Below are positions 1 through 28,785 of a stretch of 64,000 nt of DNA, in pieces. The stretch spans positions 2,048,001 through 2,112,000 of the forward strand of contig OZ220733.1 in the NCBI GenBank assembly GCA_965116875.1, in the 5' to 3' direction. How positions within the stretch are numbered: the first letter of the stretch is position 1; each line of letters starts with the position of its first letter. A program made the position numbers and the translations under genes. The notes beneath the pieces were generated by a model that was not told the origin of the DNA, made no database searches, and worked only from the letters and a program-made list of their open reading frames with translations. This stretch comes from Candidatus Latescibacterota bacterium (GTDB lineage: Bacteria; Latescibacterota; UBA2968; GCA-2709665).

Positions 1-75
1 AAGAAAGAGTCAGGCGTAAAGGCGATGGGGAAGTTCTGGATTGGTCTATTTCGACCAGGGTTTGGAGGTCAGGGT

Positions 76-2707: not shown

Positions 2708-2819
2708 ATGATAACGAACGGATGCTGTGATGGCTTACCATTAACAACGTCGGCTATTGGAGAACTGAAACGTGACGCGAGCACTTGCCCGCGCTCAGCG
2801 GTCAATGGAGGCCGTTGAA

Positions 2820-3854: not shown

Positions 3855-3987
3855 ATTTCCCGTCCCCGCCCCGCCTGGCTATCAGGACCATAAACCGCCC
3901 TTTGGGCATTTGTCCCGGGAATTGAGAAGTCATACGCCGAATCGCGTACACGTCGCGGTTCGTTGACCAGCGGGAGATTTGTGTAAA

Positions 3988-5022
3988 ATGAGACGATTTA
4001 CAATTATTGGCTTGCTTGCCCTTGGAACTCTGTTGACTGCCTGGCAGTTTTCGATAGCACAATCCGCTCGTGATGCCGATTTCGACGCCAACGGTATTGT
4101 GGACTTCGGGGACTTCATCCTGTTCGCACAGGCGTTCGGCTCGGATCAGTCCAATTTCGACCTTGATGCCAGTGGAAAAGTCGATTTTCCGGATTTCATC
4201 CTTTTTGCGCAGCGGTTTGGGGAGGGTATGCCAGAAGAGAAAATTACGGTAACCCTTCCTGGTGGCACGAAGCTGGAGATGGTCTGGATCCAACCCGGCA
4301 GGTTCCTGATGGGATCGCCCGACTCTGAGCCCGGTCGGGAGGATCACGAGGGTCCCCAGCATGAAGTCACGATCACAAAGGGATTCTACTTCGGCAAGCG
4401 TGAAGTCACGCAGGCGCAGTGGGAAAGCGTCATGAACACCCGTCCGTGGATCGTAGGATCAACATCGGAGGTACCCGGTAGAGAAAACTATCCCGCCAAC
4501 AGAATGCGCTGGAGCGAAGTCGAAACATTCATCCGTAGGCTGAACGAAGAGTTAGGGGAGGACGTCTTCCGATTACCCACCGAGGCAGAATGGGAATATG
4601 CATGCAGGGCCGGCACAACGACCCGCTGGTTCTTTGGAGAGGACTCGACACGAATCGCCGATTTCGCGCGTTATTATGAAAACTCACGAAGGACGATCGT
4701 TAGGGATGACGGTAGCATAACCTATGGAAGCCCCGAGGTGCAGGAAACGGGCAGTGTTTTTCCAAACCCCTGGGGTCTGTACGATATGCACGGGAATGTG
4801 CGGGAGTTGGTGCAGGATTACTACGGTTCATTCTCAGACCATCCGCAGACCGATCCCAGGGGGCCGGACGGTCCCACTGGAAGGCGCGCTCCGGACGGGA
4901 GTCACGTCGAAAGAGGAGGGTCCAGTTTCGACCGCCCCGAGTGGATACGTTCGGCTGTCCGCTCGGTCGGGTGGGTGCCTAACGCTTTCACCGGGTTTCG
5001 CGTGTTGATGGAATACAGATAG
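3988..5022 (+). CDS. Secreted dockerin-like + FGE-sulfatase protein 2
   Basis: Same architecture and motifs as protein 1; start MRRF placed by comparison with paralogues. Confidence 0.9.
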   Translation: MRRFTIIGLLALGTLLTAWQFSIAQSARDADFDANGIVDFGDFILFAQAFGSDQSNFDLDASGKVDFPDFILFAQRFGEGMPEEKITVTLPGGTKLEMVWIQPGRFLMGSPDSEPGREDHEGPQHEVTITKGFYFGKREVTQAQWESVMNTRPWIVGSTSEVPGRENYPANRMRWSEVETFIRRLNEELGEDVFRLPTEAEWEYACRAGTTTRWFFGEDSTRIADFARYYENSRRTIVRDDGSITYGSPEVQETGSVFPNPWGLYDMHGNVRELVQDYYGSFSDHPQTDPRGPDGPTGRRAPDGSHVERGGSSFDRPEWIRSAVRSVGWVPNAFTGFRVLMEYR

Positions 5023-5135
5023 ATTCGATCAGGAACCGTGAATAGCCTTATCGGCATTGGCCCCGGGAATTGAGAAGTCATAGGCCGAATCGCGTACACG
5101 TCGTGGTTCGTTGACCAGCGGGAGACCTGTGTGAA

Positions 5136-6185
5136 ATGAGACGATATACAATAATCGCGTTTGTTGCCCTTGGAGCGTTATTGACGGTTTGGCAGCTTCC
5201 GTTCGCCCAATCCGCCCGTGATGCCGATTTCGACGCCAATGGCATTGTGGATTTCGGGGACTTCATTCTGTTCGCTCAGGCATTCGGGTCGAATCAATCT
5301 ACTTTCGACCTGAATGGCAGCGGAAGCGTCGATTTCACGGATTTTATCCTGTTTGCACAGCGGTTTGGCGATGGTATGCCAGAAGAGAAAATTGCGGTGA
5401 CACTACCCGGCGGCGCGAAGCTGGAGATGGTCTGGATCCAGCCCGGCCGCTTTCTGAGGGGATCGCCCGATATAGAGCCGGGGCGGCGGGATGACGAAGG
5501 TCCTCAGCATGAAGTTACCATTACTCAGGGGTTCTACCTCGGGAAATACGAAGTCACCCAGGCGCAGTGGCAGAGCGTGATGAATACGCGTCCGTGGGAG
5601 CGATTCGGTGCAACCGATGAACTCGAAAAGGCAAGATACCCGGCTCGCAACGCGCGTTGGGAGTGGATACAGTCATTTATTCTGAAATTGAACGAGGCGG
5701 AAGGAGCGGACATTTTCCGGTTGCCGACGGAGGCGGAGTGGGAATACGCGTGCAGGGCAGGCACCACGACACCATGGTTTTTCGGAGCCGACTCGAGCCG
5801 TATCGGCGATTATGCCCGCAATCGTGAGAATTCGCGGAAGGCGACGTTGATGCCCGACGGCCGCGTGGTCTACGGCAGCCTGGAGCCTCAGGAGACGGGG
5901 AGCGTATTGCCGAATCCGTGGGGCCTGTACGATATGTATGGGAATGTGATGGAATGGGTTCAGGATTACTGGGCTCCGTATTCAGGAGCGGCACAGATCG
6001 ATCCCAAAGGGCCCGACGAGCCTGCGGAGTTTGAAAATGTCAACGCCGGATGGCAGGGTTCATTCCATGTTGCCAGAGGGGGATATTATTTCCACACCGC
6101 TCTCAGCATGCGGTCGGCGATCCGTTTTCGTGGTGGGGGTATGAGTCAACGAATTGGGTTTCGTTTGCTGATGGAATACAGGTAG
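5136..6185 (+). CDS. Secreted dockerin-like + FGE-sulfatase protein 3
   Basis: Same architecture; RLPTEAEWEYACRAG, GLYDMYGNVMEW, IGFRLL. Confidence 0.9.
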   Translation: MRRYTIIAFVALGALLTVWQLPFAQSARDADFDANGIVDFGDFILFAQAFGSNQSTFDLNGSGSVDFTDFILFAQRFGDGMPEEKIAVTLPGGAKLEMVWIQPGRFLRGSPDIEPGRRDDEGPQHEVTITQGFYLGKYEVTQAQWQSVMNTRPWERFGATDELEKARYPARNARWEWIQSFILKLNEAEGADIFRLPTEAEWEYACRAGTTTPWFFGADSSRIGDYARNRENSRKATLMPDGRVVYGSLEPQETGSVLPNPWGLYDMYGNVMEWVQDYWAPYSGAAQIDPKGPDEPAEFENVNAGWQGSFHVARGGYYFHTALSMRSAIRFRGGGMSQRIGFRLLMEYR

Positions 6186-6251
6186 ATTCGATTGGGTACC
6201 GTGAATCGCGCAATCGTGGTGGTTTGCTTACCAGCAGGAGGTCTGTGTGAA

Positions 6252-7301
6252 ATGAGACGATATACTTCTGTCGCGCTGATCACTATTGCAGCGTTGTTGA
6301 CGGTTTGGCAGCTTCCGTTTGCCCAGTCCGCCCGAAATGCAGATTTCGACTCGAATGGTATTGTGGACTTTGGAGACTTCATCCTGTTCGCACAGGCGTT
6401 CGGGTCGGATCAGTCCAATTTCGACCTGAATGGCAGCGGAAGCGTCGATTTCACGGATTTCATCCTGTTTGCACAGCGGTTTGGGGAAGGTATGCCTGAA
6501 GGGAAAATTGCGGTGACCATTCCCGGCGGCGCGAAGCTGGAGATGGTCTGGATCCAACCGGGTCGTTTCCTGATGGGGTCGCCGGTTTCTGAGACCGGAC
6601 GGGACGATGATGAGGGCCCCCTGCACGAGGTCACGATTACAAAGGGATTCTATCTGGCCAAGTTCGAACTCACGCAGGCGCAGTGGGAGAGCGTGATGAA
6701 TACGAGGCCGTGGCTCCTGGGAGTTTATACTCAGGATCCCAAAAAGCTGGATTTTCCGGCACACAGATTGTCCTGGCAGGAGGTCAATACGTTCTTCCGC
6801 AAACTAAACGAACCGGAGGGGAACGAGATCTTCCGGTTGCCCACGGAAGCGGAATGGGAATACGCGTGTAGGGCCGGCACCTCTTCGCCGTGGTCGTTCG
6901 GTAAAGACGCGACCCGAATCGTTGATTACGCGCGCTATTATGAGAACTCACGAACGGCAAACGTCCTCGAAGACGGGCGGGCTGTCTACGGCAATCCGGA
7001 ACCGCAGGAAACAGGCGGGGTCTTTCCGAACTCGTGGGGTCTGTACGACATGCACGGGAATGTATGGGAGTGGGTTCAGGATTATTACGGCCCATTTTCG
7101 GAAGAATCCCGGATCGATCCCAAAGGCCCCGATGGGCCGGCGCCCGAGATGGTCGTCAATGCCGGGTGGCCGGGCACGCTCCACGTGATCAAGGGGGGGT
7201 CGTTCGGCGACACCGTCGAGGAAGTGCGGTCGGCGGTACGCATGCGCGGCCGCGGATGGGGACAACGCACCGGAATCCGCGTACTCATGGTGCGAAGATA
7301 G
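6252..7301 (+). CDS. Secreted dockerin-like + FGE-sulfatase protein 4
   Basis: Same architecture; GGAGG upstream of ATG 6252 (MRRY). Confidence 0.9.
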   Translation: MRRYTSVALITIAALLTVWQLPFAQSARNADFDSNGIVDFGDFILFAQAFGSDQSNFDLNGSGSVDFTDFILFAQRFGEGMPEGKIAVTIPGGAKLEMVWIQPGRFLMGSPVSETGRDDDEGPLHEVTITKGFYLAKFELTQAQWESVMNTRPWLLGVYTQDPKKLDFPAHRLSWQEVNTFFRKLNEPEGNEIFRLPTEAEWEYACRAGTSSPWSFGKDATRIVDYARYYENSRTANVLEDGRAVYGNPEPQETGGVFPNSWGLYDMHGNVWEWVQDYYGPFSEESRIDPKGPDGPAPEMVVNAGWPGTLHVIKGGSFGDTVEEVRSAVRMRGRGWGQRTGIRVLMVRR

Positions 7302-7413: not shown

Positions 7414-10400
7414 ATGTCCTATTCGAAAACCACCATCAGTCGAACGCCTTTCCGGAATTCGCGCTGTTCTTGCATTGCGATCACGATGGCGCTGATTACC
7501 GTAGCGCTCTTTTGCCCCCGGACCGCATTGTCAGGAAATATCCACGCAGTGCGCTCTCCGGACGGGAGTACGCTCGCTTATGCCATCGAACGCGGCGAAC
7601 GGCGAGCGTTGCTGACGGAGATATGGCTGTCCCGAGACGGCGGCGGCAGTCGCGAAAGGATCAGGACCTACCCGGGCGCGGCGGGCTCCCTCGGATTCCT
7701 GCCGGACGGCAACGCCCTGGTCTATCTGGAACGTGGCCTCAGGTATCCTGCCTTCGGGTCGTACCTTTCGGGCGGCCGCAGCCTGCCGATCGTGAATAAT
7801 CGGATCTGGGAATTGGCGGTCGACGGATCGAACGAGTCCCGCTGGCCGCTTCCACCCGAACTCAATCCGATGGACGTTGCCGTCTCGCCTGACGGAGATT
7901 TTCTCGCGGTTCGGGGAGAGTGGGACGCATTGTTGGACTCGGGTCAAAGGGGGCTCTGGAGGGTTGACCGAACGGGACGGGCAACACAACTCCGGATCGG
8001 CAGGACAGCCGGCGTCCCGCGCTGGTCCGGAGACGGCGCCAAAGTCTATTTCACCGAGGGCGACACGACGTCGAAGGAAGTCAAGTTCGTGCACGTGGAG
8101 ACCGGAGAAGTGGGTACCGAAACCGCCTCCGAAGCCGCCGGCGTTCGCGGCGTTGCCGAGACCCCACGCGCCGAATTCGAACCCACACCGGACACCCGCG
8201 ACCAGATTTCCCTTCAGAAAGCCCTGGTCGAGCTCCAGAGAGGATTGAGCCGGTACAGCCGGATGAACTCGGCCGTGCACCGGGCGGACCGCCACCGGGA
8301 GAAGGACGCGCGAAAGGCCGTTGAACGGATGTTCGCGGGGTTCCATAAACACCACAAGGCCCTCCGGATCTCGAAAGCAAGCTGCCTCGCCTACGTGGCG
8401 ACGCTACGTGAACAGCAGCTGAGAACCGATGCCGCCGCCGGAGAACATGCCTGCCTGGAACACATGCTCGTGTTGAACGACCTGGCAGGGCGCTACGCCG
8501 AAAAACACGGCGCCCTTCCAACTGAACACGGTATTCTGTTCGGGTGGTTGAAACAGAAAGTCGATCTGCATGCGACCGGGGAAGCGGAACTCAGGCGGGA
8601 CAGGGAAGTCCTGGACATTGTCTTCAGTTGCCCGGCAACTTCCGATTCGGAGCCGTTGATCGAACATCTCTACAGGCCGGATGCCGCGCCCGGAATGCCA
8701 ATCCTGGCCTGTTTCCGGCACCCGGACCGGTATCTCCACCTGACGGAAACGCCGGACGCACGACGCCTCGAGGCGGTGGACATGCGTTCTGGGACGGTCG
8801 ACTCCCTCTTCGCCGTGGTCGTGCAGCGAACCGGAGAGGACCGGTTGCTGGAGGCGGCCGCCCTCTTCCAGCTCGTCGCCGTTCAGCGCCCGAAGGACGC
8901 GCCTCTCCATATCGAACTGGGGCACGCGTACTACAGGGCGAAAGACTACAAACGCGCGATGTGGGCCTTCAAGAAAGCGATCTCTCTACAGGGAGGCGCC
9001 AGGGCCTATTACGGCGTGGGTCTGGTCTATGGGGAGATTCCGAAGGAACGCAACCTGGCCATCCACTATTTCCAGGAGGCCCTCGCCCGGGACCACGGGT
9101 ACGTGGACGCCAGGTATCAGATCGCCAGGCTGCGCTACCTGATGAATGAGTACGACGTGGGCCGCGCGGTAGACCGGGTGCTGGAACTCGACCCAAACTA
9201 TTCGGACGCCTATCGCCTGATGGGCGACTGGTACGCCGATTTCTGGAAGGACTACGAACAGGCCATCGTCTGGTACACCCGATACATGGCGCTGAGACCC
9301 GGTGATTCCAGCCTTCGCAGCCGGCTGGGCATTGCCTACCTGATGATCGAAGACTACGAAAAAATCATGGCGAAGCTGCTTGGATTCGTCGAAGAGAACC
9401 CCGATGCAATTGAACTCATGCCGATCGTTGCGCAGGCATCCATGAAGCAGGGAAAGCCGGATATGGCGATGGAGTTTTTCGAGGACTACGTAGCAAAACT
9501 CCCGTCCCACGAGCGGATCTTGTATGAGGATATCCGCCTGGTTTCGTCGTTCGCAGAACTCGGCGAATTCAACAATACTCCGGAGGCTGAACGCCCCGCT
9601 TTCCTGAAACGGTTCTGGAACGACCGGGATCCGGACCTGTCCACGCCGGTAAACGAACGTTTGCTGGAGCACTACCGCCGCGTCTGGCACGCACTCACCG
9701 AATTTTCGGAAAACAAACAACCGTGGGACGTGAGGGGCGAGGTCTACGTTCGATTCGGAGAACCGGACCACCGCTCCAGGTCCGACCGGCCCAACTACAA
9801 ACAAAGCCTGGCCGTACAGCGGGTCAAAGAACGCCTCGCCGCGAATATCTACGGCGCCGACGGCATGGGTGAGTCGTTTATGGGTCCCGTCTTTCCGGTT
9901 CGCGGCATGCGACGACTGGAGGGTGAATGGTACGAGTTTCGAGAAGTCGAGACTCCGGGATTGCGTGGGGGTGACGCGGGATCGCCAGGCGAAAGCGGAG
10001 GGTCCGCGGGCGGGGATGAACTCGCCGGTGGGGGTGGAGGGTTTGGCGGACCCGTACCGGTCGAGGACGTTATGGATACAGTACGGTTGGGTCTCATGGA
10101 TATGGACAAGCGCCTCGGCTTCGGAGACTATCACCCGGTCACCTCCGGAGAAGACCGGGGGACGATCCCATGGGAGACGTGGATCTACACCGACGTGGGC
10201 GGCGGCATTGAAATCACGTTCACGGACGAATTCGGCGCCGGAACCTATGAATACGCCCCGATGCCGCCGAATCGCGGGGACATCGACCTCGGCCAGACCG
10301 CGAAGTTGAGAAACCACTCTCCAAGGGAGATCTACAAGCGAGCGTCGCGTGTAGAACCCAATTACTATGCGCCGGAAGAGGAGACGGCGCCGCTCGATTT

Positions 10401-11202
10401 TCACTATTCGCTGGCGGACTTCCGGGCCGAGGATGACCGCAGCCTCCTGGAAATCTACTACGGCGTGCCCATTCTCCCTGCTCACTACGATTCGGAAGAG
10501 GACGTCACGCGACAGGTCCTCACGCACCATGCGGCGCTCATTTCATCCACGCTGGACACCGTCTACCGAAAATCGGAAGGGTTGACGTACGAGGCGGAAG
10601 GAAACCAGGCGGGAGAGGGCATCCAGGTTCCCGGCGTCCTGAAGCTGAACCTGCCGCCCGGCGCCTACCGGCTGGAAGTGAGAGCGCAGGACCGGCTCAG
10701 GGGACGAATGGGCGCCTATCGACAGCAGGTCGTCGTAGAGCCATACGGCGAGGAGGGGTTGCAGGTGAGCGATCTCGAACTGGCCTGGAAGGTTGCTGCG
10801 GAAAAAGGGAACAGCCGGTTCAACAAGGGGGACCTGAACGTCATTCCAATGCCGTCGCGAACCTTCAGGAAGGGCCAGGGCGTCTTCGTCTACTACGAAA
10901 TCTACAACCTGGCGAAAGACGCGTTCGGGCAGACGAATTATAATGTGTCCCATACGATCACATCCAGAGACACACCGGCAACCATCAGCAACATCTCACG
11001 CCTGTTCCGCTGGCGAACCGGGAAACGCGAGGAACTGGCCGTCACCTACGAACAGCAGGGGGATGCCGTGCAGGAAGTGGAATACGTTGAATTGGACCTC
11101 GCCGAACAGGCTCCGGGTCGATACTCGCTGAAGGTGGCGATCGAAGACAGGAACAGCGGTGAAACGGCGGAAAAGGACGTTGTATTTGTGATCGCGGAAT
11201 AG
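7414..11202 (+). CDS. TolB-like propeller segment + TPR + GWxTD-type protein #2
   Basis: 1262 aa; signal peptide, SPDG repeats, many TPRs, FWNDRDPDL...ERLLEHYRRV, variant motif PWDVRGEVYVRFGEPD, C-terminal FVYYEIYNL domain. Confidence 0.85.
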   Translation: MSYSKTTISRTPFRNSRCSCIAITMALITVALFCPRTALSGNIHAVRSPDGSTLAYAIERGERRALLTEIWLSRDGGGSRERIRTYPGAAGSLGFLPDGNALVYLERGLRYPAFGSYLSGGRSLPIVNNRIWELAVDGSNESRWPLPPELNPMDVAVSPDGDFLAVRGEWDALLDSGQRGLWRVDRTGRATQLRIGRTAGVPRWSGDGAKVYFTEGDTTSKEVKFVHVETGEVGTETASEAAGVRGVAETPRAEFEPTPDTRDQISLQKALVELQRGLSRYSRMNSAVHRADRHREKDARKAVERMFAGFHKHHKALRISKASCLAYVATLREQQLRTDAAAGEHACLEHMLVLNDLAGRYAEKHGALPTEHGILFGWLKQKVDLHATGEAELRRDREVLDIVFSCPATSDSEPLIEHLYRPDAAPGMPILACFRHPDRYLHLTETPDARRLEAVDMRSGTVDSLFAVVVQRTGEDRLLEAAALFQLVAVQRPKDAPLHIELGHAYYRAKDYKRAMWAFKKAISLQGGARAYYGVGLVYGEIPKERNLAIHYFQEALARDHGYVDARYQIARLRYLMNEYDVGRAVDRVLELDPNYSDAYRLMGDWYADFWKDYEQAIVWYTRYMALRPGDSSLRSRLGIAYLMIEDYEKIMAKLLGFVEENPDAIELMPIVAQASMKQGKPDMAMEFFEDYVAKLPSHERILYEDIRLVSSFAELGEFNNTPEAERPAFLKRFWNDRDPDLSTPVNERLLEHYRRVWHALTEFSENKQPWDVRGEVYVRFGEPDHRSRSDRPNYKQSLAVQRVKERLAANIYGADGMGESFMGPVFPVRGMRRLEGEWYEFREVETPGLRGGDAGSPGESGGSAGGDELAGGGGGFGGPVPVEDVMDTVRLGLMDMDKRLGFGDYHPVTSGEDRGTIPWETWIYTDVGGGIEITFTDEFGAGTYEYAPMPPNRGDIDLGQTAKLRNHSPREIYKRASRVEPNYYAPEEETAPLDFHYSLADFRAEDDRSLLEIYYGVPILPAHYDSEEDVTRQVLTHHAALISSTLDTVYRKSEGLTYEAEGNQAGEGIQVPGVLKLNLPPGAYRLEVRAQDRLRGRMGAYRQQVVVEPYGEEGLQVSDLELAWKVAAEKGNSRFNKGDLNVIPMPSRTFRKGQGVFVYYEIYNLAKDAFGQTNYNVSHTITSRDTPATISNISRLFRWRTGKREELAVTYEQQGDAVQEVEYVELDLAEQAPGRYSLKVAIEDRNSGETAEKDVVFVIAE

Positions 11203-11204
11203 GA

Positions 11205-12335
11205 TTGGAGGACAACGTGGTGCCGGAGATACGAAACGGCCGGTCCGCGCGAGGCATTCTGGCGTTCGTAATGTTATCGATTCTGACGGGCTGCGGCAGT
11301 AGTGTGACTACAAGTATTGATTCAAACAAAGGCCCGACGGGAATTGAAGTCGCCGGACACATGACGGACAAGCGTCACGGGCATTATTCGATATTGTTGC
11401 GGGACGGAAGGGTACTGATCGGTGGAGGCGCCGCGGCGGGTGGGACCGGCGCATATTCGACCTATCATACCAGTGCGGAGATTTTTGATCCCGAAACCGG
11501 ATCCTCCAGAGCAACCCACAGCATGTCGACCGCACGAATGGGCGACGAGGGGACATTGCTGCCTGACGGTCGGGTTGTATTTGCAAGCGCGACTCAGCAT
11601 ACCCGTTCAAAGACGTACCCGGTGGAAATATTCAATCCACGAACCGGCGAATTTACGCCAATTCAATTCAATCCCGCATTCGAAAAGATCTCCAAGACTA
11701 CGTTGCTTTCAAATGGAAAGATCCTTGCATTCGGTCGATCCGGCACGATCTGGACGATAGATCCGGAAACGGGCGAGTTTGAATTCAAAAACAGGCTGGC
11801 GGTCCCTCGCGGGGCATACACGGCGACAATGCTGTGGGATGGGCGTGCCTTGATTACCGGTGGGATTACCGATCGCGCGGTCAGAGATTCTGAAATCTAC
11901 GACCCATCGTCCAATATTCTTACGAAGGTCGGTGGTCTGACGCACGAACGGTACGGACACACGGCGTTGCTGCTTCGGGACGGCAGCGTGTTCATTGCAG
12001 GCGGCAGAATAGGTGATCCGTCCTCTCCGACGCAGGTGACGGCCGCTGAGCGTTACGACCTCACCAACAGGAGGTTTTCGCGGGCTGGCAGTCCCGGCAA
12101 CGAGCAGATTCGAGCTGCCGCAGTATTAAACACAGGGAATGTATTTTTCATCCTCCGCAACGGCGACGTGGTACTCTACGACCCGGAAACCGGGACATTT
12201 CATCCCACAGGCCACAGTATTGGGCAAGACTACAAGCACTTTAGCGTAACGGCGCTTCGCGACGGGCGTGTGCTGGTTATTGGCGGATCAAAAAACGGAG
12301 AAACCCTGGATCAGATCCTGGCGTACCGCCCCTAG
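11205..12335 (+). CDS. Kelch-repeat beta-propeller lipoprotein 1
   Basis: Lipobox ILTG-C; repeated H/Y-x-A-x-LLxDGRVLIxGG and EIFDP motifs. True start probably GTG 11217/11220 after GGAGG. Confidence 0.85.
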   Translation: MEDNVVPEIRNGRSARGILAFVMLSILTGCGSSVTTSIDSNKGPTGIEVAGHMTDKRHGHYSILLRDGRVLIGGGAAAGGTGAYSTYHTSAEIFDPETGSSRATHSMSTARMGDEGTLLPDGRVVFASATQHTRSKTYPVEIFNPRTGEFTPIQFNPAFEKISKTTLLSNGKILAFGRSGTIWTIDPETGEFEFKNRLAVPRGAYTATMLWDGRALITGGITDRAVRDSEIYDPSSNILTKVGGLTHERYGHTALLLRDGSVFIAGGRIGDPSSPTQVTAAERYDLTNRRFSRAGSPGNEQIRAAAVLNTGNVFFILRNGDVVLYDPETGTFHPTGHSIGQDYKHFSVTALRDGRVLVIGGSKNGETLDQILAYRP

Positions 12336-12355
12336 CCTCGGCGGCTGTGCGGGTC

Positions 12356-12445
12356 ACGGGTGGACATTTGGTACAGGTCTTGATCCACGACACGAACACC
12401 GACGAGACGGCGGAAAAAGACGCCGGTTTTGTAATCGCGAAGTAG
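12356..12445 (+). pseudogene. Orphan 3' fragment of a GWxTD gene
   Basis: Reads TGGHLVQVLIHDTNTDETAEKDAGFVIAK*, aligning without gaps to the ends of GWxTD #2 (ETAEKDVVFVIAE*) and #3 (ETVDKDAGFVITEMD*). Confidence 0.75.
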
Positions 12446-12529
12446 GAACGCATTCTTTAACAGATCGACAAACTGAAGCCTTGGCAATCCGACGCGGCCG
12501 TTCAAACCGATTTCAAGGATTCGAGAACC

Positions 12530-14110
12530 GTGAATTTAAGAGCGCGGAAAGTGTGTAATCTAAAGCGTTACAGCTTACTCGTCCGCCAGACGTGGATGGT
12601 CGTTCTTGCCGTGGCGTGTATCAGTTGCAGTCAGAAGAATACGCCTCAGGGTCCGGCGCCAACGCAAGGTCCGACTGCGTCCGGCGGGTCAATCAATCTG
12701 TCCTTCAGCGATCTTATCCTTACGATGCGGGAAGTCGTCTCCCAGCAGGAAGACATGGCGGGGCTTCGACCGACAGTCGATTTTGCGCAGGATATCCGGG
12801 TGACTCTTGAAGACAGCCTGACAATCTTCCCATTGCCGGATTCGGGTTGGGGAGGCAGGCATCCGAGTACGGGGTGGACGACGTCTTTTGTAACGGTCAA
12901 GTTGAAACCTACCCGCCTGGAAGTTGTGCAGACGGAGATCTTATCCGGTGAAATGCGATTCGATATGCACAACAATATGCCGGAAGATGTTCGGGTAAAA
13001 TTGTATTTCAACGACATCAAGAAAAACGAGGTCATTAACCTGGCAGACGTCATTCCCGCGAACGCCGTTAAGACGGTTCGGCTACCCCTGGGAGGTACAG
13101 TCTTCAGACCTCAGATGAGTTCGAGTGGAAGCGATTTCATTAACAATATATCCGGAAACATGGATGTAGAAACTTCAGGGCTTCGTCTCATCAGCGAACG
13201 GATGGTGGATTGGCGCTACGTCCCGTCCCCCATTGTTTTCAATTCGCTAACCGGCCGTATCGTCGATATGCGAATTCCGTTTGAAACCCATCCGATAGAC
13301 GTCTCCCTGCCGGCGGACTTCGAGGGCGTTCAGTCTGCGACACTCGAAATCAACCTGGCCAATGGGATTGTATTTTCGAAGGAACTAAGTTTGAATGTCG
13401 TGGCTCGTGAGGACACGACAGGCGGGAGGTCAATCTCCCTTGACCTGCCGCCGGAAATGCGTCCACTTGGCGAAGGCGTTCCGGACGATCCTGTGCTTAC
13501 GACGCTGCGTCTCGATGAAACGAACAGCAACATTGTCGACCTGCTCAACCTCAAACCTGCATTCATTGAGATCAGCGGCGACATCCTACTTGGAGGCGTC
13601 AGCCAGTCCACGGTTAGACGGACCGACGGTTTGGATATCCAGGTAGCCATCCGTTCGCCGCTGGAGGCTGCCTTCGAGGAAAATATGGCCGTCTCCGAAA
13701 CGAAGAATATTAGTATCGATACGTCCACCCGCGCCAGACTTGCACGAGCCACGGGTGGAACACTCACGCTGGATCTGGCCAATGGGTTGCCCGTTGGCGT
13801 CGGAATCCGGCTTCTTCTGGGAACGGACGCCGAACGGCTTCTTGAGTCCCCGGACCTGAAGATCCCTCGGCAGGGGGACATTGCCCTCGGCGCCGCTCCG
13901 GTCGACGCGACCACGGGTCTGGTCAACGACCCCGGTACCCGCCGGGAACAACTCACGCTCACGGCGGCCGAGGCGGTTGTACTCTCACGGTCACGCCTCA
14001 AATCCCTTATGGTGATCACTACAGAAGCAACTAACGACCGGAAGGTTCGCATCTTGGATAGCGACGCGGTCAAAATGTCGATAAGGGCCAGGATATCTGT
14101 CAGCGAATAG
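12530..14110 (+). CDS. Hypothetical beta-rich lipoprotein
   Basis: 526 aa ORF; lipobox-like ACIS-C then a Pro/Gln linker; alternating beta-strand pattern; recurring N-x-[LMI]-[PV] motif (NNMP, NGIV, NGLP). Confidence 0.7.
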   Translation: MNLRARKVCNLKRYSLLVRQTWMVVLAVACISCSQKNTPQGPAPTQGPTASGGSINLSFSDLILTMREVVSQQEDMAGLRPTVDFAQDIRVTLEDSLTIFPLPDSGWGGRHPSTGWTTSFVTVKLKPTRLEVVQTEILSGEMRFDMHNNMPEDVRVKLYFNDIKKNEVINLADVIPANAVKTVRLPLGGTVFRPQMSSSGSDFINNISGNMDVETSGLRLISERMVDWRYVPSPIVFNSLTGRIVDMRIPFETHPIDVSLPADFEGVQSATLEINLANGIVFSKELSLNVVAREDTTGGRSISLDLPPEMRPLGEGVPDDPVLTTLRLDETNSNIVDLLNLKPAFIEISGDILLGGVSQSTVRRTDGLDIQVAIRSPLEAAFEENMAVSETKNISIDTSTRARLARATGGTLTLDLANGLPVGVGIRLLLGTDAERLLESPDLKIPRQGDIALGAAPVDATTGLVNDPGTRREQLTLTAAEAVVLSRSRLKSLMVITTEATNDRKVRILDSDAVKMSIRARISVSE

Positions 14111-14162
14111 GACCGGCGGAAATACGCAGAGTGAAAGTGGAGATCTAGAATATCCTCAAGAT

Positions 14163-14273
14163 CACTGCTGTCCAAGATAGTTTGAAAAAGACGATCTTGG
14201 ATGCGTAAGTACCTGGTTTTCTTGAAAGTCGTTTCGAAGTGTCAATGCAGGTCACCTTCTTTTGGCCACGGGT
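14163..14273. repeat. Divergent copy of CACTGCTGTCCAAGA element
   Basis: Shares the 15-bp start and a GCCACGGGT-like end about 100 bp later with the copies at 19871 and 31318. Confidence 0.5.
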
Positions 14274-14280
14274 GTCCTAG

Positions 14281-15980
14281 CCCGAATAATTCATGAATCG
14301 TCAGATAATGCGTTTTAAGGAAGCAGAAAGAGCTTCCGAGAGAGACAAGAAACAAAACAGTGTGGTCTGTGACGGATATGTCGTGTTGAACCGGTATTGG
14401 CGGTGGGTGCAGGCAACACGATGGCTCTGAGGCGTCAGGTTGCGCCGAATGCCGCTGTCAAACGTACAGACGTCTCCATGGTCCTTGGTCGTGTCGATGC
14501 AAACGTGATGGCGAGGTCAGAACTTCGATGGATTATGGAACCCCTGTTGACAGATTATCGAGGATTTTACGATAAAGGTGTTGGAGTGGAAACGCCGTTG
14601 GAAGATGGAACTTGATTTTGGTTTTCAACTCACAAACGCGCGCTGCGACTTTCAAGATGCGGTTTTGCAGGGTATTGAACTGTGCGTTGACCCACTTCGT
14701 GCCGCGCAATCCGATGGTCGCCAGGGCATGCATCAGGACATAGGCGACGCTGTGGAGAAAGAGACGGAAGTGATTGGCTTCAAAGGTGTGACAAGAGGTG
14801 CGATCGGAATGGAGAAAGGTTTTGTGATTCTTGATGAAGTTTTCCATCCTGCCGCGCGCGCAATAGACGTCTTTGTAGATGAATGAGGGCTGGCTACTTT
14901 CGAGGTTGGTCACTACAAAGCGTGCATTGGCTTGTCCCGAAGCGGTGATTTCAGCTTTGTAGATGATGCGTCGTGGCGATGCCCAGGTGTGGGCCTGGTA
15001 ATCGAAACTGGTAAAGCGCTGCACCGCCTGTCCGGTTTCCCGATATTCTGCCTTTGCCTGTTCCATCAACGGATGTGCCTGTTGTTCAAGCCTGTCGTTT
15101 CCAGTCTGTCCCAGCACAAAATACACGTCGTGTTCGTCGCAAAAGTCGTGGACCTCAGGACAAGAAAAATGAGCATCGCCACGCACAAAGACAGCCACGT
15201 GGGGCCACGCCTTACGAAGGGCTTTCACCAGTCGCTTGAGAATGCTGACAATCTGTTTGCCGGAAGGACGCGCACCCGGACGCAGGAGGGTCGTGATCAG
15301 TTTCCCTGTCTGGCCTTCATAAATGTGCAAGGGACAGTAGCAGCGTTGATCATGATAGCCGTTGAACAGAGACAACTGTTGATTGCCGTGAACCTCGTCG
15401 TTGGTGTCATCGAAATCCAGAACGACCGCTTTGGGAGGCACATCGTAGGACGCAATGAACTCATCCACAAAGGCCTCGCCGATGCGAACTAAGTCCCTGC
15501 GACGAATCCCGTTTTCCAATCGACTCATCGTGGGTTGACTGGCCAGGTTCGCGTCAGAGGCCGGCAACCGATCACAGGCCATCTTGAACGCGGGATCCTC
15601 GCGCAACAAATCGCAATCGTTCGCATCTTCATACGCGCACGCGATCTGGAACACACGCTGACGGATCAGGTCTGCCATCGTGTGGTCCACATAACTTGGA
15701 TGCCGACGGTCCGTTAACGCCGCCACGATACGCGACAGGATGCCGGTTTGCAACCCCACCTCCCGAAGCAGCATCACCCCCATATCGCTGGTGAGCGCCC
15801 CGCCATCGAAGACGGCTTCCACCTGCTTGCCCGAAACACTTGCGAAAGAGAGCGTGCATTGATTATCTTGAACGTCCACGGTAGTTTCCTCCATTGTCGT
15901 TGTGTTATGGTTATGACCGTAACCACAATATAATACAATGACTTGGGTATGGAAACTACCTTTTTTATGAATTATTCAGG
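14281..15980 (-). mobile_element. Complete IS1380-family insertion sequence (1700 bp)
   Basis: 14-bp TIRs CCCGAATAATTCAT / ATGAATTATTCAGG (1 mismatch); CTAG duplicated at 14277-14280 and 15981-15984. Confidence 0.92.
14533..15894 (-). CDS. IS1380-family DDE transposase
   Basis: FDGGALTSDMG, ASQPTMSRLEN, LDFDDT...HGNQQ, RGDAHFS, YCARGRMENFIK motifs. Confidence 0.95.
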   Translation of the reverse strand: MEETTVDVQDNQCTLSFASVSGKQVEAVFDGGALTSDMGVMLLREVGLQTGILSRIVAALTDRRHPSYVDHTMADLIRQRVFQIACAYEDANDCDLLREDPAFKMACDRLPASDANLASQPTMSRLENGIRRRDLVRIGEAFVDEFIASYDVPPKAVVLDFDDTNDEVHGNQQLSLFNGYHDQRCYCPLHIYEGQTGKLITTLLRPGARPSGKQIVSILKRLVKALRKAWPHVAVFVRGDAHFSCPEVHDFCDEHDVYFVLGQTGNDRLEQQAHPLMEQAKAEYRETGQAVQRFTSFDYQAHTWASPRRIIYKAEITASGQANARFVVTNLESSQPSFIYKDVYCARGRMENFIKNHKTFLHSDRTSCHTFEANHFRLFLHSVAYVLMHALATIGLRGTKWVNAQFNTLQNRILKVAARVCELKTKIKFHLPTAFPLQHLYRKILDNLSTGVP

Positions 15981-16022
15981 CTAGACAGAAACCGATTGGG
16001 GACCGGTGGGGTGGCGTTCCCG

Positions 16023-16170
16023 GGAGCGAGGGCATCCTGCCCTCGACATCGGATAACTCCTCGCACACGGTGTTTTCAGTGACCCGGAGTCGTATTGAAT
16101 GGCCCGATCAGTCTCTCGACGGGAATAGGGATCGGTGACGCGAAGCTCGAGGGCAGGATGCCCTCGCTCC
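16023..16170. repeat. Inverted REP pair (REPIN-like)
   Basis: GGAGCGAGGGCATCCTGCCCTCGA (16023-16046) and its perfect reverse complement (16147-16170); each is itself a hairpin. Confidence 0.8.
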
Positions 16171-16361
16171 GGTTGCGGGTGGATCATGTCGTGGTTGCGG
16201 TTGGAGAGGATGATTGTGGACAGGTGTGCCTCTAGACGTAAAAGAAGGCCAGTGCGAAAACACATTTCGGGGATGCTTTTGGGCTGTGCACGTTTTCCGA
16301 GCCCTGATGACTGGAAGACAACTCAGCCATCGTGACCCAGTTACGGCGAAAGGGTGCCAAT

Positions 16362-19300
16362 ATGAGATCTCAAATTGGATGCATACGCATAGTCCGGCGG
16401 ACTATGATCGCGTTTTCCGTAGCGATATTCGCGAGTGTCTGCGCTCATGACGACACAGATGCGCAAACTCGCCGACAGTCGAGATCCGTGTCGAGCGAAG
16501 GGACGACCGCCTGGGCGGTGGGGATGGAAACCGGCCCGGTCGCCGTTACGGAGATCTGGGTCGAGAGCGAGAGAGGCGCGCCACGTCGTCTGGGCATCTT
16601 TCCGGGTCCCCCCGGGGATCTGGCGTGGACGCCAGGTGGGAAGAAGCTTCATTACCGGTCAATGCCGCTGCAGGTCGCGCTGCACAGTCTTTCAATGGTC
16701 CCGAAGCGATCCGAACCGCTGGTCCAGTCCGTCGTTTGGGAAATCTCGATTTCTGATGGATCCGTAAAGCGTCTGCAGGGAACAGAAGTGCACGAACCCG
16801 AAACACCACCGGTTGCGACCGGTGACGCATCTTCGGCTCCGAGCATTGGAGCCAAAGCTGCTCTGTCCGGCGTCGCTGCAGCGTTCAAAGCCACGGCCCT
16901 AGCTTACAGCACCTTGCATCGATGGGACTTTGAAGAGGCGGAAGACAGGTACCGAAAAGCAGCGAAGGCATGGGGGGCTCTCCCCTCGCGATTCAGCAAA
17001 CAGGGCCTGTTCAGAGAGCCGCTAAACGCCTATGTCAAAGCGCTCGGCGCGATGTCCAGAGAAGCCGAAGAAAAATCAGGCGCCCGCTGGGTCTGTCGGG
17101 ATCATCTTGCCGTTATCGGAGACCTGCTGCAGGCATACGAACAGGACCACGACGGCCAGCGGCCAACGGACCTTAACGCACTCAAAATGTGGGTCGAATC
17201 CCATACCCTGACCCGCGCCGACTCGGTCGTCATGAAGACGCTGTTCCGATCGCCGGCCGACCCGGAAGGCAGCAGGCCGATCAGCTACACGCACGGCTAT
17301 CGACCGGAAGCTGTGGCGGGCGAAGCCGTGGTCACGAGTTTCTTCCACGGCGGTCACCTTATAGAATCAGTCCGCACCGGCGCAGGCTATCGAATCATCG
17401 ATCGACGCGCTGGCCGTGCTCAGATCGACTCACTCCTTGCCCTTGGGATGGAACTCACCCCAAGAAATCCTCTTCGGGCGATCTCCACGCTGGAGGTCCT
17501 TGCCGGCGTCGCGCCGGGTTTTGCAGCCGGCCACAGCAAGCTTGGGTTCGCCTACCTGGAGGTTGGGAACCTGGTTCGCGCCATTCACGCGTTTGAAAGT
17601 GCGATAGAAAGCGACCACACGCTGGCCGAAGCCTATTACGGTCTGGGTCTCACCTTCCGAAGGTGGCCCAGGGGCTCCTACGACGCCATCCGCTACTTTC
17701 AGAAAGCGCTCCAGTATAAGCGGGACTACGTCGAAGCCCGTTACAATATCGCAGAGGTCCGGCACGAACTGGAAGAACACGACGCCCGGCTCGATCTCGA
17801 AAAACTGATGGAAATTGACCCACGCTATGCTCCCGCCTACCTGCTGATGGGAAAATGGTACGAAGAGTTCGAAAAGGACTACGAGAACGCAGCGCTTTAT
17901 TATGCCCAATATATGGGTCTGGCGCCCCACGATCCGGAGGGCAGGAAACGCCTCGCCGCGGTCTACCTGGAAACCCGCAATTACGAGCGTATTGCCGAGA
18001 TGCTGCAGGAATACGCCCTTGAACATCCCGACGACATCCAGATCCTGCCGATTCTCGCGCAGGCCTGTTCCAGGTTGGGAGCCTTTGACAGGGCTGAAGC
18101 ATTTTTCAGGGACTACCTCGAGGCGGTTGATGCGGCCGAACGGGCGCACTACGAAGATATAGCTCTCGTTACGTCTTCCGAGCAGTTGGCGGAATTTGAG
18201 CGGACCCCGTTGTCGGACCGGCCGGCATTTCTGCACTCATTCTGGTCCGATCGAGACCCCGACCTGACCACGGCGGCAAACGAACGCCGGCTGGAGCACT
18301 ACCGTCGGGTGTGGTATTCGATGCAGAATTTTTCGGAGGGCAAGCGGCCGTGGGACCAGCGCGGCGAAGTGTATATCCGGTTCGGTGAGCCGGACCACCG
18401 GTCGCGCTCCGACAACAGAAACTTCCAGCAGTCCCTGGCGGTCCAACGGATAAAGGAACGTCTCTCCACGGCGCTCTACGGCGCAGCCGTCCCGCCGCAC
18501 ATGTTTCTGAAGTCAGCAACCGATCTGGATGGTATCGGGCACGCCAGGGGCGACGTACCGATTCAGACCTCGGGCCCGGGCGCGACGTACGCCGGTCCGG
18601 TCTATCCTGTGCGCAGCCATCGGACCATGAGCGCTGGTGGGTCTCCCGGATTCAGCGCCGAATACCAGGGGGATGGTATCAAATCGAAACAAGCTGCCCG
18701 GTTGGGGATCGACCGTGCCGAGCAGGAAGAACAGATACTCGGCGCCGGCAGGGGAAGCGGCAGACCGTTGAACTTCAAACCTGTGACCAGTGAGGATGAC
18801 GCCTCAATCGTCCCCTGGGAGACGTGGGTGTACGTGAACGTGGGCGGTGGCATCGAAATCACGTTCACCGACGAATTCCACAACGGCACCTATAACTACG
18901 CGCCCGCTCCGCTGGACGCCCGAATTCCCAGCCGCCAGCAGGCCATGTTGAATCGCTACAACCCCCACAACGTCTATCGCATGGCCGCTGCGGCAACCCC
19001 CGATTACTATGTACCGCCTCTGAACGAGGATCCGATGGAGTTCTATTACGACTCGGCTGACTTCAGAAGCGAACAGGGTTACGATACGGCGCTCGAAGTC
19101 TACGCTGGAATACCTCGACGGCAAGGCCATTACCTGCGTGATGAAGACCGCACGGAAATAGATGCCGACCGGACGGTGGCTCTTCGTAATCGAACGACGG
19201 GAGCGGTCTACCGTAGTCACGAACTGATACGTTTCGCCGCCAGGGGAGACGTAACCACAGAACGCGGCGGGTTTGTTCCTGACCTTGCCCGCATGGACGT

Positions 19301-19856
19301 TCCGGCCGGCCTCTATCGGATGGAAGTCAAGTTGAAGGACCGTCTTTCCGCCCGGCACGCGCGGTACCGCCAGGACGTGGAGGTGGAATCCTATAGGGGG
19401 ACGGGTCTTCAGTTGAGCGATTTGGAAATGGCCTGGCGCATTTCCACGAGCGAGAACGAGGACAAATTCAGCAAGGGAAGACTGTGGGTCATTCCCATGC
19501 CCACCCGGACGTACGAAAAAGGCCAGAGCGTATTCGTCTACTACGAAATCTACAACCTGTCGAAGGACGAATTCGGACAGACGAACTACGAAGTGTCCTA
19601 CACGGTCACGTCAAACGACAACCCCGGCGCCGCCGGTATCATCTCCAGCCTGACCCGGTGGAGGGAAGGCAAACGCGAGGTACTCTCCGTTACGTACCAG
19701 CAGCAGGGCACGGCGACCCAGGAAGCGGAATACGTGGAACTCGAGCTGGAAAACCGTCCGGTGGGGAAATACCTGCTGAAGGTAACCGTCATGGACCGGA
19801 ACAGCGGGGAGACAGTAGATAAAGACGCCGGTTTTGTGATCACGGAAATGGATTAG
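16362..19856 (+). CDS. TPR + GWxTD-type protein #3
   Basis: ORF 16332..19856, ATG 16362 preferred; signal-like N-terminus, TPRs, FWSDRDPDL, PWDQRGEVYIRFGEPD, WETWVY, FVYYEIYNL. Confidence 0.85.
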   Translation: MRSQIGCIRIVRRTMIAFSVAIFASVCAHDDTDAQTRRQSRSVSSEGTTAWAVGMETGPVAVTEIWVESERGAPRRLGIFPGPPGDLAWTPGGKKLHYRSMPLQVALHSLSMVPKRSEPLVQSVVWEISISDGSVKRLQGTEVHEPETPPVATGDASSAPSIGAKAALSGVAAAFKATALAYSTLHRWDFEEAEDRYRKAAKAWGALPSRFSKQGLFREPLNAYVKALGAMSREAEEKSGARWVCRDHLAVIGDLLQAYEQDHDGQRPTDLNALKMWVESHTLTRADSVVMKTLFRSPADPEGSRPISYTHGYRPEAVAGEAVVTSFFHGGHLIESVRTGAGYRIIDRRAGRAQIDSLLALGMELTPRNPLRAISTLEVLAGVAPGFAAGHSKLGFAYLEVGNLVRAIHAFESAIESDHTLAEAYYGLGLTFRRWPRGSYDAIRYFQKALQYKRDYVEARYNIAEVRHELEEHDARLDLEKLMEIDPRYAPAYLLMGKWYEEFEKDYENAALYYAQYMGLAPHDPEGRKRLAAVYLETRNYERIAEMLQEYALEHPDDIQILPILAQACSRLGAFDRAEAFFRDYLEAVDAAERAHYEDIALVTSSEQLAEFERTPLSDRPAFLHSFWSDRDPDLTTAANERRLEHYRRVWYSMQNFSEGKRPWDQRGEVYIRFGEPDHRSRSDNRNFQQSLAVQRIKERLSTALYGAAVPPHMFLKSATDLDGIGHARGDVPIQTSGPGATYAGPVYPVRSHRTMSAGGSPGFSAEYQGDGIKSKQAARLGIDRAEQEEQILGAGRGSGRPLNFKPVTSEDDASIVPWETWVYVNVGGGIEITFTDEFHNGTYNYAPAPLDARIPSRQQAMLNRYNPHNVYRMAAAATPDYYVPPLNEDPMEFYYDSADFRSEQGYDTALEVYAGIPRRQGHYLRDEDRTEIDADRTVALRNRTTGAVYRSHELIRFAARGDVTTERGGFVPDLARMDVPAGLYRMEVKLKDRLSARHARYRQDVEVESYRGTGLQLSDLEMAWRISTSENEDKFSKGRLWVIPMPTRTYEKGQSVFVYYEIYNLSKDEFGQTNYEVSYTVTSNDNPGAAGIISSLTRWREGKREVLSVTYQQQGTATQEAEYVELELENRPVGKYLLKVTVMDRNSGETVDKDAGFVITEMD

Positions 19857-19867
19857 ATTAGACCTTA

Positions 19868-19987
19868 CAGCACTGCTGTCCAAGAACCGCGGGATTCCTG
19901 GAGATGAGGTTCGAAAAATGGATTCCTTTCGCGATTATGGACGGCTTTGACCCCGACAACGAAGACCAGTTTGCCATGGGTTCGCGT
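19868..19987. repeat. ~120-bp repeat directly after the GWxTD #3 stop
   Basis: Nearly identical to 31315-31428 (CAGCACTGCTGTCCAAGAACCGCGGGATTCCTGGAGATGAGGTTCG...GGGTTCGCGT). Confidence 0.9.
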
Positions 19988-20119
19988 CTGTTGCATGGCT
20001 TCTCATACTGACCGGAGTCAAAGCATTTTTCGCCGCTTCCGTACCGTGCTGGAGGCGGACGTGCTGCCTCCCAGGTATTGAAACGTGCAAATCGCACGGG
20101 AATAATGCGATGCTGCAGT

Positions 20120-20287
20120 AGATCCTTCGTCGGCCTGGCACCCCATCGGGATGACCGTACGAAGAACGTGTGACGGACGCGTTTCGCCTATGTCGTGCGC
20201 AGGCCTCCTCTGGATGACAGCGGGAAGAAACACGCTTGCATATGGGCCAACATGTCATTCTGAGCGGAGTCGAAGAATCTCCCGTCT
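20120..20287. repeat. REP-like pair of the AGATYCTTCG...GATGACA family
   Basis: TGTCATTCTGAGCGGAGTCGAAGAATCTCCCGTCT at 20253-20287 (copy at 31442-31475); an expanded inverted partner AGATCCTTCG...GGATGACA at 20120-20219. Confidence 0.65.
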
Positions 20288-20520
20288 CGATTAGACGTGT
20301 CGCAGATGCTCTTTGAAGACGAACCTGTGCGCGGACGCTTTGCCAGACTCTCCTCCTCATCTGCATAACATTCGGCCGAAAGTGTGAACGATACATTTCG
20401 CCAATCGTTGTGGGCGAATTTTCCATCCGTATATTTCGTACACTTTCGCATCTTTCGTAGGTTACCACACCCGTTTTTGGACAGGTGTGATATGAGATAA
20501 AACCAACAAAGGTTTTAGAG

Positions 20521-20547
20521 GGTGGGGCGGACATTCCTGTCTGCCCG
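20521..20547. repeat. REP-like palindrome GGCGGACATTCCTGTCTGCCC
   Basis: Reverse-complement copy at about 31542-31567. Confidence 0.7.
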
Positions 20548-21720: not shown

Positions 21721-22063
21721 CCTGCATCATTCAATAAACAGGCAACTGGTGTTCCATTACCCATCGACGTGCTGACCTCGCCTTCACGTTTGCATCGAAA
21801 CGACCAATGGCCAAGGAGGCGTTTGTGCTTTCGATAGCGGCATTCAGGGCAACCTCACGCCACGGCGCTATCGTGTTCCCAGCACACACCCCACAAACGG
21901 CGTGAACGCGCCAAATCCGTCACCGCCCTTGCTCTTTCGTTTCTCGTTTCATCCGGAAATTCTTTCTGCTTCCGTAAAATCCATTATCCGTCGATTCCTG
22001 AATGAATCAGGTTAGAATCTACTTTCTGCATTCCGCGAGAAAATCCCGAAGATCTGGAACCCA

Positions 22064-28645: not shown

Positions 28646-28785
28646 GAACCTATGGCGCCTGGCCTGTGTCTTTCATGAGGGACGGGCGTGGCGGATGAAA
28701 GAGCCCGTGGGGACTCCGGTGCGCAGGTCCTAATTTTTCCGCGATTCTGAGATTGGTGTTCTCCTTCGTTCGAAAGGGCCGATGT

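Follow-up and report, generated by a model that had tools for sequence, protein, structure and literature searches.

How the last codons of a GWxTD gene come to stand alone behind a Kelch gene, and whether such a stranded end marks a point of gene entry, is the question raised by a gene array in an uncultured Latescibacterota bacterium. The window analysed here is a stretch of 64,000 nucleotides covering positions 2,048,001-2,112,000 of a 5.45-Mb single-contig genome (G000), and its first 31 kb, annotated from open reading frames and Pfam matches, hold a same-strand gene array (Table 1). A sequence-only reading of the window had likened the layout around the gene Kelch1 to attL/attR sites and proposed that cargo enters downstream of GWxTD genes by recombination in their conserved tail. 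The explanation favoured here, with the balance of probability somewhat on its side, is that the headless tail (the orphan) is an old pseudogene scrap, a direct repeat within a tandem GWxTD/Kelch array that is reshuffled by homologous recombination and gene conversion.

Table 1. Features of the array, in window coordinates
Feature	Position	Strand	Evidence
GW1 (GWxTD gene)	1-2505		
Four FGE-sulfatase-like genes	2772-7301		
GW2 (GWxTD #2), 1262 aa; TPR repeats, GWxTD domain, Ig-like C-terminal region	7414-11202	+	ORF, Pfam
Functional GW2 tail, left direct-repeat copy; last 29 codons, stop and 2 nt	11114-11204	+	Repeat search
Kelch1, Kelch-repeat beta-propeller with lipoprotein-like signal	11205-12335	+	Pfam Kelch_6, Kelch_4, Kelch_1
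Orphan headless GWxTD tail, right direct-repeat copy	12357-12447	+	tblastn, profile HMM, repeat search
Upstream region of the Lipo526 gene	12446-12529	+	DNA alignments
Lipo526, predicted lipoprotein of 526 aa; no Pfam family; single copy in the genome	12530-14110	+	
IS transposase, DDE_Tnp_1_4 (PF13701)	14533-15894	-	Pfam, E 4e-158
GW3 (GWxTD #3)	16332-19856	+	
199-aa ORF	19935-20534	-	
Kelch2, second Kelch gene, followed by a full GWxTD gene	20602-21720	+	
GW4 (GWxTD #4)	22064-25504	+	
MacB-like permease, after GW4	25589-27994		
GW5	28753-31305		

The orphan lies in a reading frame at 12344-12442 that closes with a stop at 12443-12445 and reads ..VTGGHLVQVLIHDTNTDETAEKDAGFVIAK*. It has neither a start nor a 5′ body, its homology to GWxTD tails begins about 21 nt past the Kelch1 stop (TAG, 12333-12335), and 84 nt separate it from the Lipo526 gene. 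The direct repeat that it forms with the GW2 tail extends from the 'PG' codons through 2 nt beyond the stop, is ungapped and 73% identical over 91 nt, and is the sole repeat reported by the repeat search; the longest exact run shared by the two copies, read by eye from the printed alignment, is about 11 nt. Kelch1 does therefore sit between two diverged direct copies of a GWxTD tail, and the headless fragment of ~29 codons soon after its stop, already seen in the sequence-only reading, is confirmed by frame, repeat, tblastn and profile HMM. The resemblance to the ends of GW2 and GW3 was likewise well observed, the DNA string of the GW3 end being exact in the fragment and that of the GW2 end differing at 2 positions. 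A GGAGGA comes immediately after the GW2 stop, and the GTG behind it at 11217 or 11220 is the likely start of Kelch1.

Searches of the whole genome indicate that the orphan stands alone in G000. In tblastn it is matched by the last 40 amino acids of GW2, GW3 and GW4 with E values of 5e-4, 7e-5 and 1e-3, respectively. A profile HMM built from 23 tails of the genome and run over 147,589 six-frame stop-to-stop pieces matches it with an E value of 6.6e-6 across positions 16-45 of 45, the match ending exactly at the stop. It is the only match in a short open frame with E <0.3, and the remaining matches with E <=0.001 are C-termini of frames of 719-1290 aa; about 29 GWxTD genes are counted in G000 as frames with a C-terminal tail match at E <=1. 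By this measure the genome has one orphan tail and not a population of them, and orphans occur in relatives as well. The spacer between Kelch2 and GW4 (21721-22063) gives no tail match by tblastn or profile.

Several other features of the array bear on its general make-up. The FGE-sulfatase-like genes upstream of GW2 are 64-70% identical to one another and number 2-5 among congeners, and three of the four carry weak N-terminal EF-hand or dockerin-like motifs. About 40 nt just 3′ of the GW3 and GW5 stops are identical (about 19870-19910 and 31320-31360), and the nearby 199-aa ORF has many relatives, full-length as well as broken, across the genome; together the repeat and the ORF family may represent a small repeated element.

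The site in related genomes

The array was mapped in G000 and 11 congeners (Table 2), and the genomes were placed on an outgroup-rooted tree of the rpoB locus (6.7 kb) that has three clades. Clade I comprises G011, G013 and G007, clade II comprises G012, G001 and G009 in a branching order that the tree does not resolve, and clade III has the topology ((G010,G014),(G006,(G003,((G004,G000),(G005,G008))))). In G002, G006, G011 and G013 no GW2 ortholog is found with this query (best matches 44-53%), which makes them uninformative for the site; G002 has a 77% partial GW2 match at a contig start.

Table 2. Gene order at the site in G000 and mapped congeners
Genome	Arrangement
G000, G004	GW2-Kelch1-orphan (type A)-Lipo526
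G003	GW2-Kelch1-orphan A (frameshifted)
G014	GW2-Kelch1-orphan A-(ORF199 remnants)-Kelch2-GW4
G005	GW2-Kelch1-orphan (orphan-type 5′ part, GW2-tail-type 3′ part)-Kelch1b-decayed orphan B-Lipo526
G008	GW2-Kelch1-decayed orphan B-(450-bp insert)-Lipo526
G010	GW2-KelchX-(190-bp MITE-like insert)-orphan B-(450-bp insert)-Lipo526
G001	GW2-Kelch1-orphan C (GW3-type 3′ part)-MacB
G009	GW2 then Lipo526 directly (L014: 10747-14637, then 14661-16301); further on GW3-KelchX-orphan C-MacB
G012	GW2-Kelch1-full GW4-like ORF (L049, 17115 onward)
G007	GW2-Kelch1b-GWxTD remnant (about -85 to -51 codons)
G013	GW1-like-Kelch-Lipo526; tail not detected

Kelch1-type genes are present in all 15 genomes of the genus, and a Kelch1-clade gene follows GW2 in 9 of the 11 genomes with a GW2 ortholog, in all three rpoB clades. 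Outside the genus, a single Kelch homolog of 33-38% identity is found in each of three of the five genomes searched. Orphan tails stand behind Kelch genes in 8 of the 11 mapped congeners. An orthologous orphan with the same junction behind Kelch1 is shared by at least four congeners (G004, G003, G014 and G005), and decayed copies follow Kelch genes in G008, in G005 (behind the second Kelch gene) and in G010. Being common to several species of the genus together with its junction, the orphan is old. A paralogous pair of GW2'' and Kelch at 3.11 Mb of G000, 50% and 48% identical to GW2 and Kelch1, has no orphan, and the 553-aa ORF that follows the Kelch gene there was rejected as a Lipo526 homolog, as the two have no similarity.

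An allele in which a GWxTD gene is followed directly by the 526-aa lipoprotein had been predicted as the empty counterpart of the site, and it exists in one of the 11 genomes with a GW2 ortholog, G009, where Lipo526 begins within about 100 nt of GW2. DNA alignments show the Lipo526-upstream sequence adjoining the orphan in G000 and the functional GW2 tail in G009. The contrary expectation, that relatives would carry a full GWxTD gene at this position and none would be empty, has a candidate for its first part in G012, where a full GW4-like ORF begins 108 nt past the Kelch1 stop, and fails in its second on the G009 allele. The downstream context in G012 is GW5 and not Lipo526, and the arrangement GW2-Kelch1-full GWxTD-Lipo526, which a deletion route would require as the ancestral state here, occurs in none of the mapped genomes. 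G012 was also considered as a Kelch1/Kelch2 recombinant, an idea that finds no support, its Kelch1-GW4 spacer being unlike the Kelch2-GW4 spacers of G000, G005 and G014.

The relatives also differ in small insertions and lesions around the site. In G003, G004 and G014 the spacer between GW2 and Kelch1 is 250-320 nt long and holds a ~90-nt element (e.g., L012, oriented 10475-10576) about 90% identical, when translated, to sequence upstream of the paralogous Kelch gene at 3.11 Mb; the element is missing in G000, G005, G008, G012 and G001, where no more than about 12 nt separate Kelch1 from the GW2 match. At first sight the element was a candidate remnant of a Kelch head, but its counterpart in the 401-aa K1pp ORF falls upstream of the Kelch homology, and it is therefore probably a repeated intergenic element rather than a gene scrap. 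The ~190-bp MITE-like element of G010 (L013, about 14720-14910) has terminal inverted repeats and an apparent TTAG target duplication, and its insertion point coincides with the Kelch stop codon. The ~450-bp insert between the decayed orphan and Lipo526 is nearly identical in G008 and G010. The aligned frame of the G009 GW3 ortholog (L014, 16535-20041) is interrupted by a stop near codon 191, and the gene is either a pseudogene or the product of an assembly error. G001 carries a GW2-like gene with an internal deletion that joins residues 1-169 to about 1076-1261 (L055/L056, oriented 5331-6362), a different type of scrap from the orphan tails.

Recombination at gene ends and the direction of the event

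Recombination in GWxTD tails, one part of the earlier proposal, has left traces at other positions of the array. In G008 a second empty site has GW3 directly before MacB, and this gene is GW3-like up to its last codons, which are of GW4 type and run into GW4-type flanking sequence close to MacB; a GW3 with the end and downstream sequence of GW4 marks a tail crossover that removed Kelch2 together with the body of GW4. In the sister genome G005, GW3 and GW4 are identical over their final ~350 nt at 45-48 of 50 positions per alignment segment, which indicates that these 3′ ends were homogenised by conversion. GW2 itself (7581-11202) shares 92.5% DNA identity over 3.6 kb, and 91% amino acid identity, with a paralog 16 kb upstream (L001 6028-9652; genome 2036028-2039652) that lacks a Kelch gene and stands before a gene for an M4 peptidase. 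The shared tract begins within the gene and runs as far as the stop codon and no further, its flanks are ~72% identical (including the FGE genes) or unrelated, and it looks like the product of gene conversion. The orphan of G005 is a hybrid in its own right (Table 2).

The arrays also contain plain deletion scars. In G001 a GW1-type tail lies between GW5 and a Kelch gene, at a position occupied by a full GW1 in G012, G003, G007 and G008, and in G003 only a GW2''-type tail precedes the paralogous Kelch gene, at a position where GW2'' is complete in G000, G012 and G007. The GW1-type scar of G001 begins at position 16 of the tail profile, as does the orphan.

Exchange between species is seen in Kelch1 and is suggested for Lipo526. 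A tract of ~1 kb within Kelch1 (about 11297-12297) is 96-100% identical between G000 and G005 (L017), whereas GW2 on one side is 81-95% identical per 100 nt and Lipo526 on the other about 70% at the amino acid level; shorter patches of 98-99% identity are common to G000 and G003 and to G000 and G004. These near-identical tracts indicate mosaic allelic recombination between species, and the 96.5%-identical Kelch1 of G005 was discarded as evidence of cassette exchange, the tract being internal to the gene and not bounded by tails. Lipo526 has orthologs in 6 of the 14 congeners, with amino acid identities to G000 of 89% in G004 and G010, 76% in G009, 73% in G008, 71% in G013 and 70% in G005. These identities and those of Kelch1 (82-97%) conflict with the rpoB tree, the most divergent Lipo526 alleles being found in the close relatives G005 and G008, and for this surface lipoprotein the discordance points to allele exchange or to diversifying selection.

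The mechanism favoured for these observations is one in which RecA-type homologous recombination and gene conversion would act on the conserved ends of the array, the GWxTD tails and the Kelch 3′ ends. The first event would have been either deletion of a GWxTD body downstream of Kelch1 or displacement of the GW2 end by an incoming 'GWxTD 3′ end plus Kelch', and would have stranded the last ~30 codons of a GWxTD gene between Kelch1 and the Lipo526 gene as a non-coding relic. Recombination of the array ends, rather than an integrase, would then have generated the range of alleles with Kelch lost (empty), doubled or replaced and with hybrid orphan tails, and the only present-day role of the orphan would be that of a ~90-nt direct repeat of the GW2 tail.

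The claim that cargo enters downstream of GWxTD genes through their tails survives in part, as the repeat layout, the empty allele and the recombining tails speak for it and the nested position of the empty allele and the deletion scars elsewhere speak against it. G009 sits in a three-member rpoB clade with G012 and G001, both of which are occupied, and an empty allele nested among occupied relatives is more likely to reflect secondary loss than a pre-insertion state; the Kelch1 tree, furthermore, roughly follows the species tree. This polarity is weak because arrays change faster than species diverge, the sisters G010 and G014 having very different arrays, and frequent recombination between lineages likewise weakens species-tree parsimony here. 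Loss by a crossover between tails is not directly visible in G009 because its GW2 tail, which is of the same type as that of the occupied sisters up to and beyond the stop, has no orphan-derived 3′ part, and the site may instead be empty by ancestry.

Entry of Kelch1 by displacement of the GW2 C-terminus is a less likely alternative. An incoming segment made of a GWxTD 3′ region, a stop and a Kelch gene would be anchored by homology in the 3′ region of GW2, and its far end would be joined illegitimately about 32 codons before the resident stop, either by homology-facilitated illegitimate recombination or by a Campbell-type single crossover of a circle. The donor tail would now be in use and the resident tail would have been pushed behind Kelch, and repeated rounds would build arrays such as that of G005. 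The model has been published for Rhs and T6SS effector loci (PMC5361080), and it would account for the empty allele, with its GW2 tail next to the same Lipo526-upstream sequence that adjoins the orphan in G000, as well as for a second site of the same kind, GW3-MacB in G008 versus GW3-Kelch-tail-MacB in G009. In G005, two Kelch genes are each followed by an orphan, the distal one being more decayed, and this order of functional tail, younger-looking orphan and decayed orphan would fit sequential insertion next to GW2.

The ends of the Kelch unit are a further point in favour of displacement. The right end is constant at ~15 nt past the stop and precedes three different continuations: a tail that begins some 32 codons before the GWxTD end, in G007 a remnant that begins some 85 codons before it, and in G012 intergenic sequence with a full GW4. 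The joining positions within GWxTD genes thus vary (-32 and -85 codons) while the unit end does not. The orphan-B junction is the same behind Kelch1 in G008, Kelch1b in G005 and KelchX in G010, genes that are 40-68% identical. A 'GHL' signature is common to orphans A and C and absent from functional tails, which suggests a single old origin of the junction that was later patched by conversion. The constant unit end and the shared junction fit displacement or a defined cassette end better than independent random deletions, and for this reason displacement is kept as a possibility and its site-specific variant, discussed below, as a faint one.

Against displacement stand the regular succession of GW2 and Kelch1 in 9 of 11 genomes, the largely species-like Kelch1 tree and the nested empty allele. 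In addition, the empty site of G008 was produced by deletion, the recent exchange between G000 and G005 took place within Kelch1, a full GWxTD gene follows Kelch1 in G012, and G000 has only one orphan despite about 29 GWxTD genes. On this evidence the reading of the orphan as a scrap of a reshuffled array is preferred.

Relaxed constraint and tests of function

The orphan evolves in the manner of a relic. Between the sisters G000 and G004 it has kept 70 of 91 nt, whereas the functional GW2 tail has kept 80 of 91, and among all copies the orphans agree at 65-71 of 91 nt and the functional GW2 tails at 70-82. Orphans decay faster than functional tails and are under relaxed constraint; the copies of G003 and G001 carry frameshifts and the second copy of G005 an in-frame stop. 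With respect to Kelch, the orphan is in frame in G014 and shifted by -1 in G000, G004 and G005, and recoding from Kelch1 into the tail by frameshift or readthrough is rejected because this relation is not conserved. Taken together, the data suggest that the orphan is a non-coding, functionless relic.

Retention of the orphan for a function, as a promoter or leader of Lipo526, a terminator of Kelch1 or a small ORF, is very unlikely. A functional or orphan tail does lie upstream of Lipo526 in G000, G004, G005, G008, G009 and G010, but none is detectable in G013, and G008 and G010 tolerate the ~450-bp insertion between the orphan and Lipo526. A terminator-like hairpin with a T-run falls inside the orphan (12408-12425), although the scan finds 5 terminator-like sites where 2.2 +/- 1.4 are expected, the stem seems not to be conserved in G004 when the sequences are compared by eye without folding, and the fold of 12320-12540 is no better than that of shuffles (z -0.53). 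The promoter scan returns 0 sigma-70-like promoters. The frame is open in 4 of 5 type-A copies and the kept tail abuts or overlaps the start of the next gene in other scars, but the faster evolution of the orphan and its inconstant frame relative to Kelch count against a function. An Rfam search of 10500-16500 at E values up to 1 returns only a spurious two-strand miRNA match at the 5′ end of the transposase gene, where a palindrome at 15884-15956 matches mir-3524 on both strands with 30 bits against a gathering score of 99 and is a hairpin only.

Site-specific exchange and comparison with known systems

The sequence-only reading had found no integrase in the window, which holds for the 38 ORFs scanned with Pfam: none is an integrase, resolvase or invertase, and the only transposase is the DDE transposase (PF13701) 2.1 kb downstream of the orphan. 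This IS has a 100% identical second copy at genome positions 590056-591414 and 71% identical copies elsewhere by tblastn. In G004, G005, G008 and G009, GW3 follows Lipo526 within 113-521 nt without the IS, and its absence from the site in these genomes marks it as a recent insertion unrelated to the repeat.

That the Kelch genes are site-specific cassettes that terminate at a fixed point ~15 nt past the stop and are joined to a tail site at -32 codons by a recombinase encoded elsewhere is highly improbable. The junction shared by three Kelch lineages (Kelch1 of G008, Kelch1b of G005, KelchX of G010) would be expected of such cassettes, homology between G001 and G009 breaks exactly at the 5′ edge of the orphan, and one clear deletion scar, of GW1 type in G001, starts at the same profile position 16. 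The common 5′ edge may, however, only mark the limit of homology detection, the tail being variable upstream of 'PG', and the join in G007 lies at a different GWxTD position. No recombinase is found among the 38 ORFs scanned, the repeat copies have no exact core longer than about 11 nt, there is no inverted repeat or hairpin beyond chance (z -0.53), and most Kelch genes (K1pp and the Kelch2 arrays) have no orphan.

Some integrative elements enter a gene, in most cases one for a tRNA, at its 3′ end, restore it with a copy that the element carries and leave attL/attR direct repeats. The locus resembles them in the complete gene end to the left of the insert, the headless copy to its right and the empty site in a relative. 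It differs in having no integrase, in repeats that are 73% identical without a long exact core, in a cargo that is a single, mostly vertically inherited gene of ~1.1 kb, and in an empty site that is phylogenetically nested. Because of the missing recombinase among the ORFs scanned, the diverged repeats without a long core and the mostly vertical cargo, the locus does not appear to belong to the attL/attR class of the integrase type.

Tandem multigene families of surface proteins are known for gene remnants, unequal crossing-over and gene conversion. The array shares with them tandem paralogs that lie on one strand and are conserved at their ends, the occurrence of chimeric ends and of homogenised 3′ regions, as well as deletion scars where relatives have full genes and scraps that decay faster. 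Unlike in those families, the scrap recurs on the 3′ side of Kelch and the Kelch unit has a constant end, which random deletion alone does not explain.

The closest described process to this layout is the C-terminal displacement of Rhs, CDI and T6SS effector-immunity loci, in which sequential displacement is proposed to strand 3′ ends by homology-facilitated illegitimate recombination (PMC5361080, which refers to Jackson et al. 2009 and to Koskiniemi et al. 2014, PMC3967940). Both systems use a conserved part of the main gene as the homology anchor, leave a headless same-strand 3′ end of the main gene downstream of an intervening gene, may hold more than one stranded end in an array and do not need an integrase. 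The stranded piece here, however, is not a variable toxin domain but the conserved last ~30 codons, the GWxTD C-terminal tail being the conserved part of the protein, with 55-60% identity between paralogs that are ~41% identical overall. No immunity gene follows the orphan and no small ORF is paired with the tails, the intervening gene is a Kelch lipoprotein, the GWxTD proteins match no toxin family in Pfam, and the event may have been an insertion or a deletion. A full-text literature search for 'GWxTD' found no paper.

A more far-reaching extension is that GWxTD tails act as landing pads of integrase-free exchange, by which Kelch lipoprotein genes with a fixed 3′ end would be moved, stacked and swapped behind GWxTD genes through recombination in the conserved tail; each event would leave the earlier tail stranded, and orphans would record successive insertions. 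This is rather unlikely; if true, an uncultured Latescibacterota lineage would have, for its surface proteins, a counterpart of the C-terminal displacement of Rhs/T6SS loci, and displacement at this site would extend a mechanism of toxin loci to non-toxin surface genes.

Although real, the orphan is a fairly ordinary object, a scrap like many others in an array that reshuffles itself by recombination, and its 90 nt should be annotated as a gene remnant or direct repeat rather than as a gene or an att site. Its value lies in the family to which it belongs, the roughly 29 GWxTD genes of G000 and the Kelch lipoproteins, a large genus-specific family of surface proteins whose array content already differs between sister species through gene loss, doubling, replacement and conversion at conserved gene ends. 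The orphan thereby offers a handle on the turnover of such a family among closely related uncultured bacteria.
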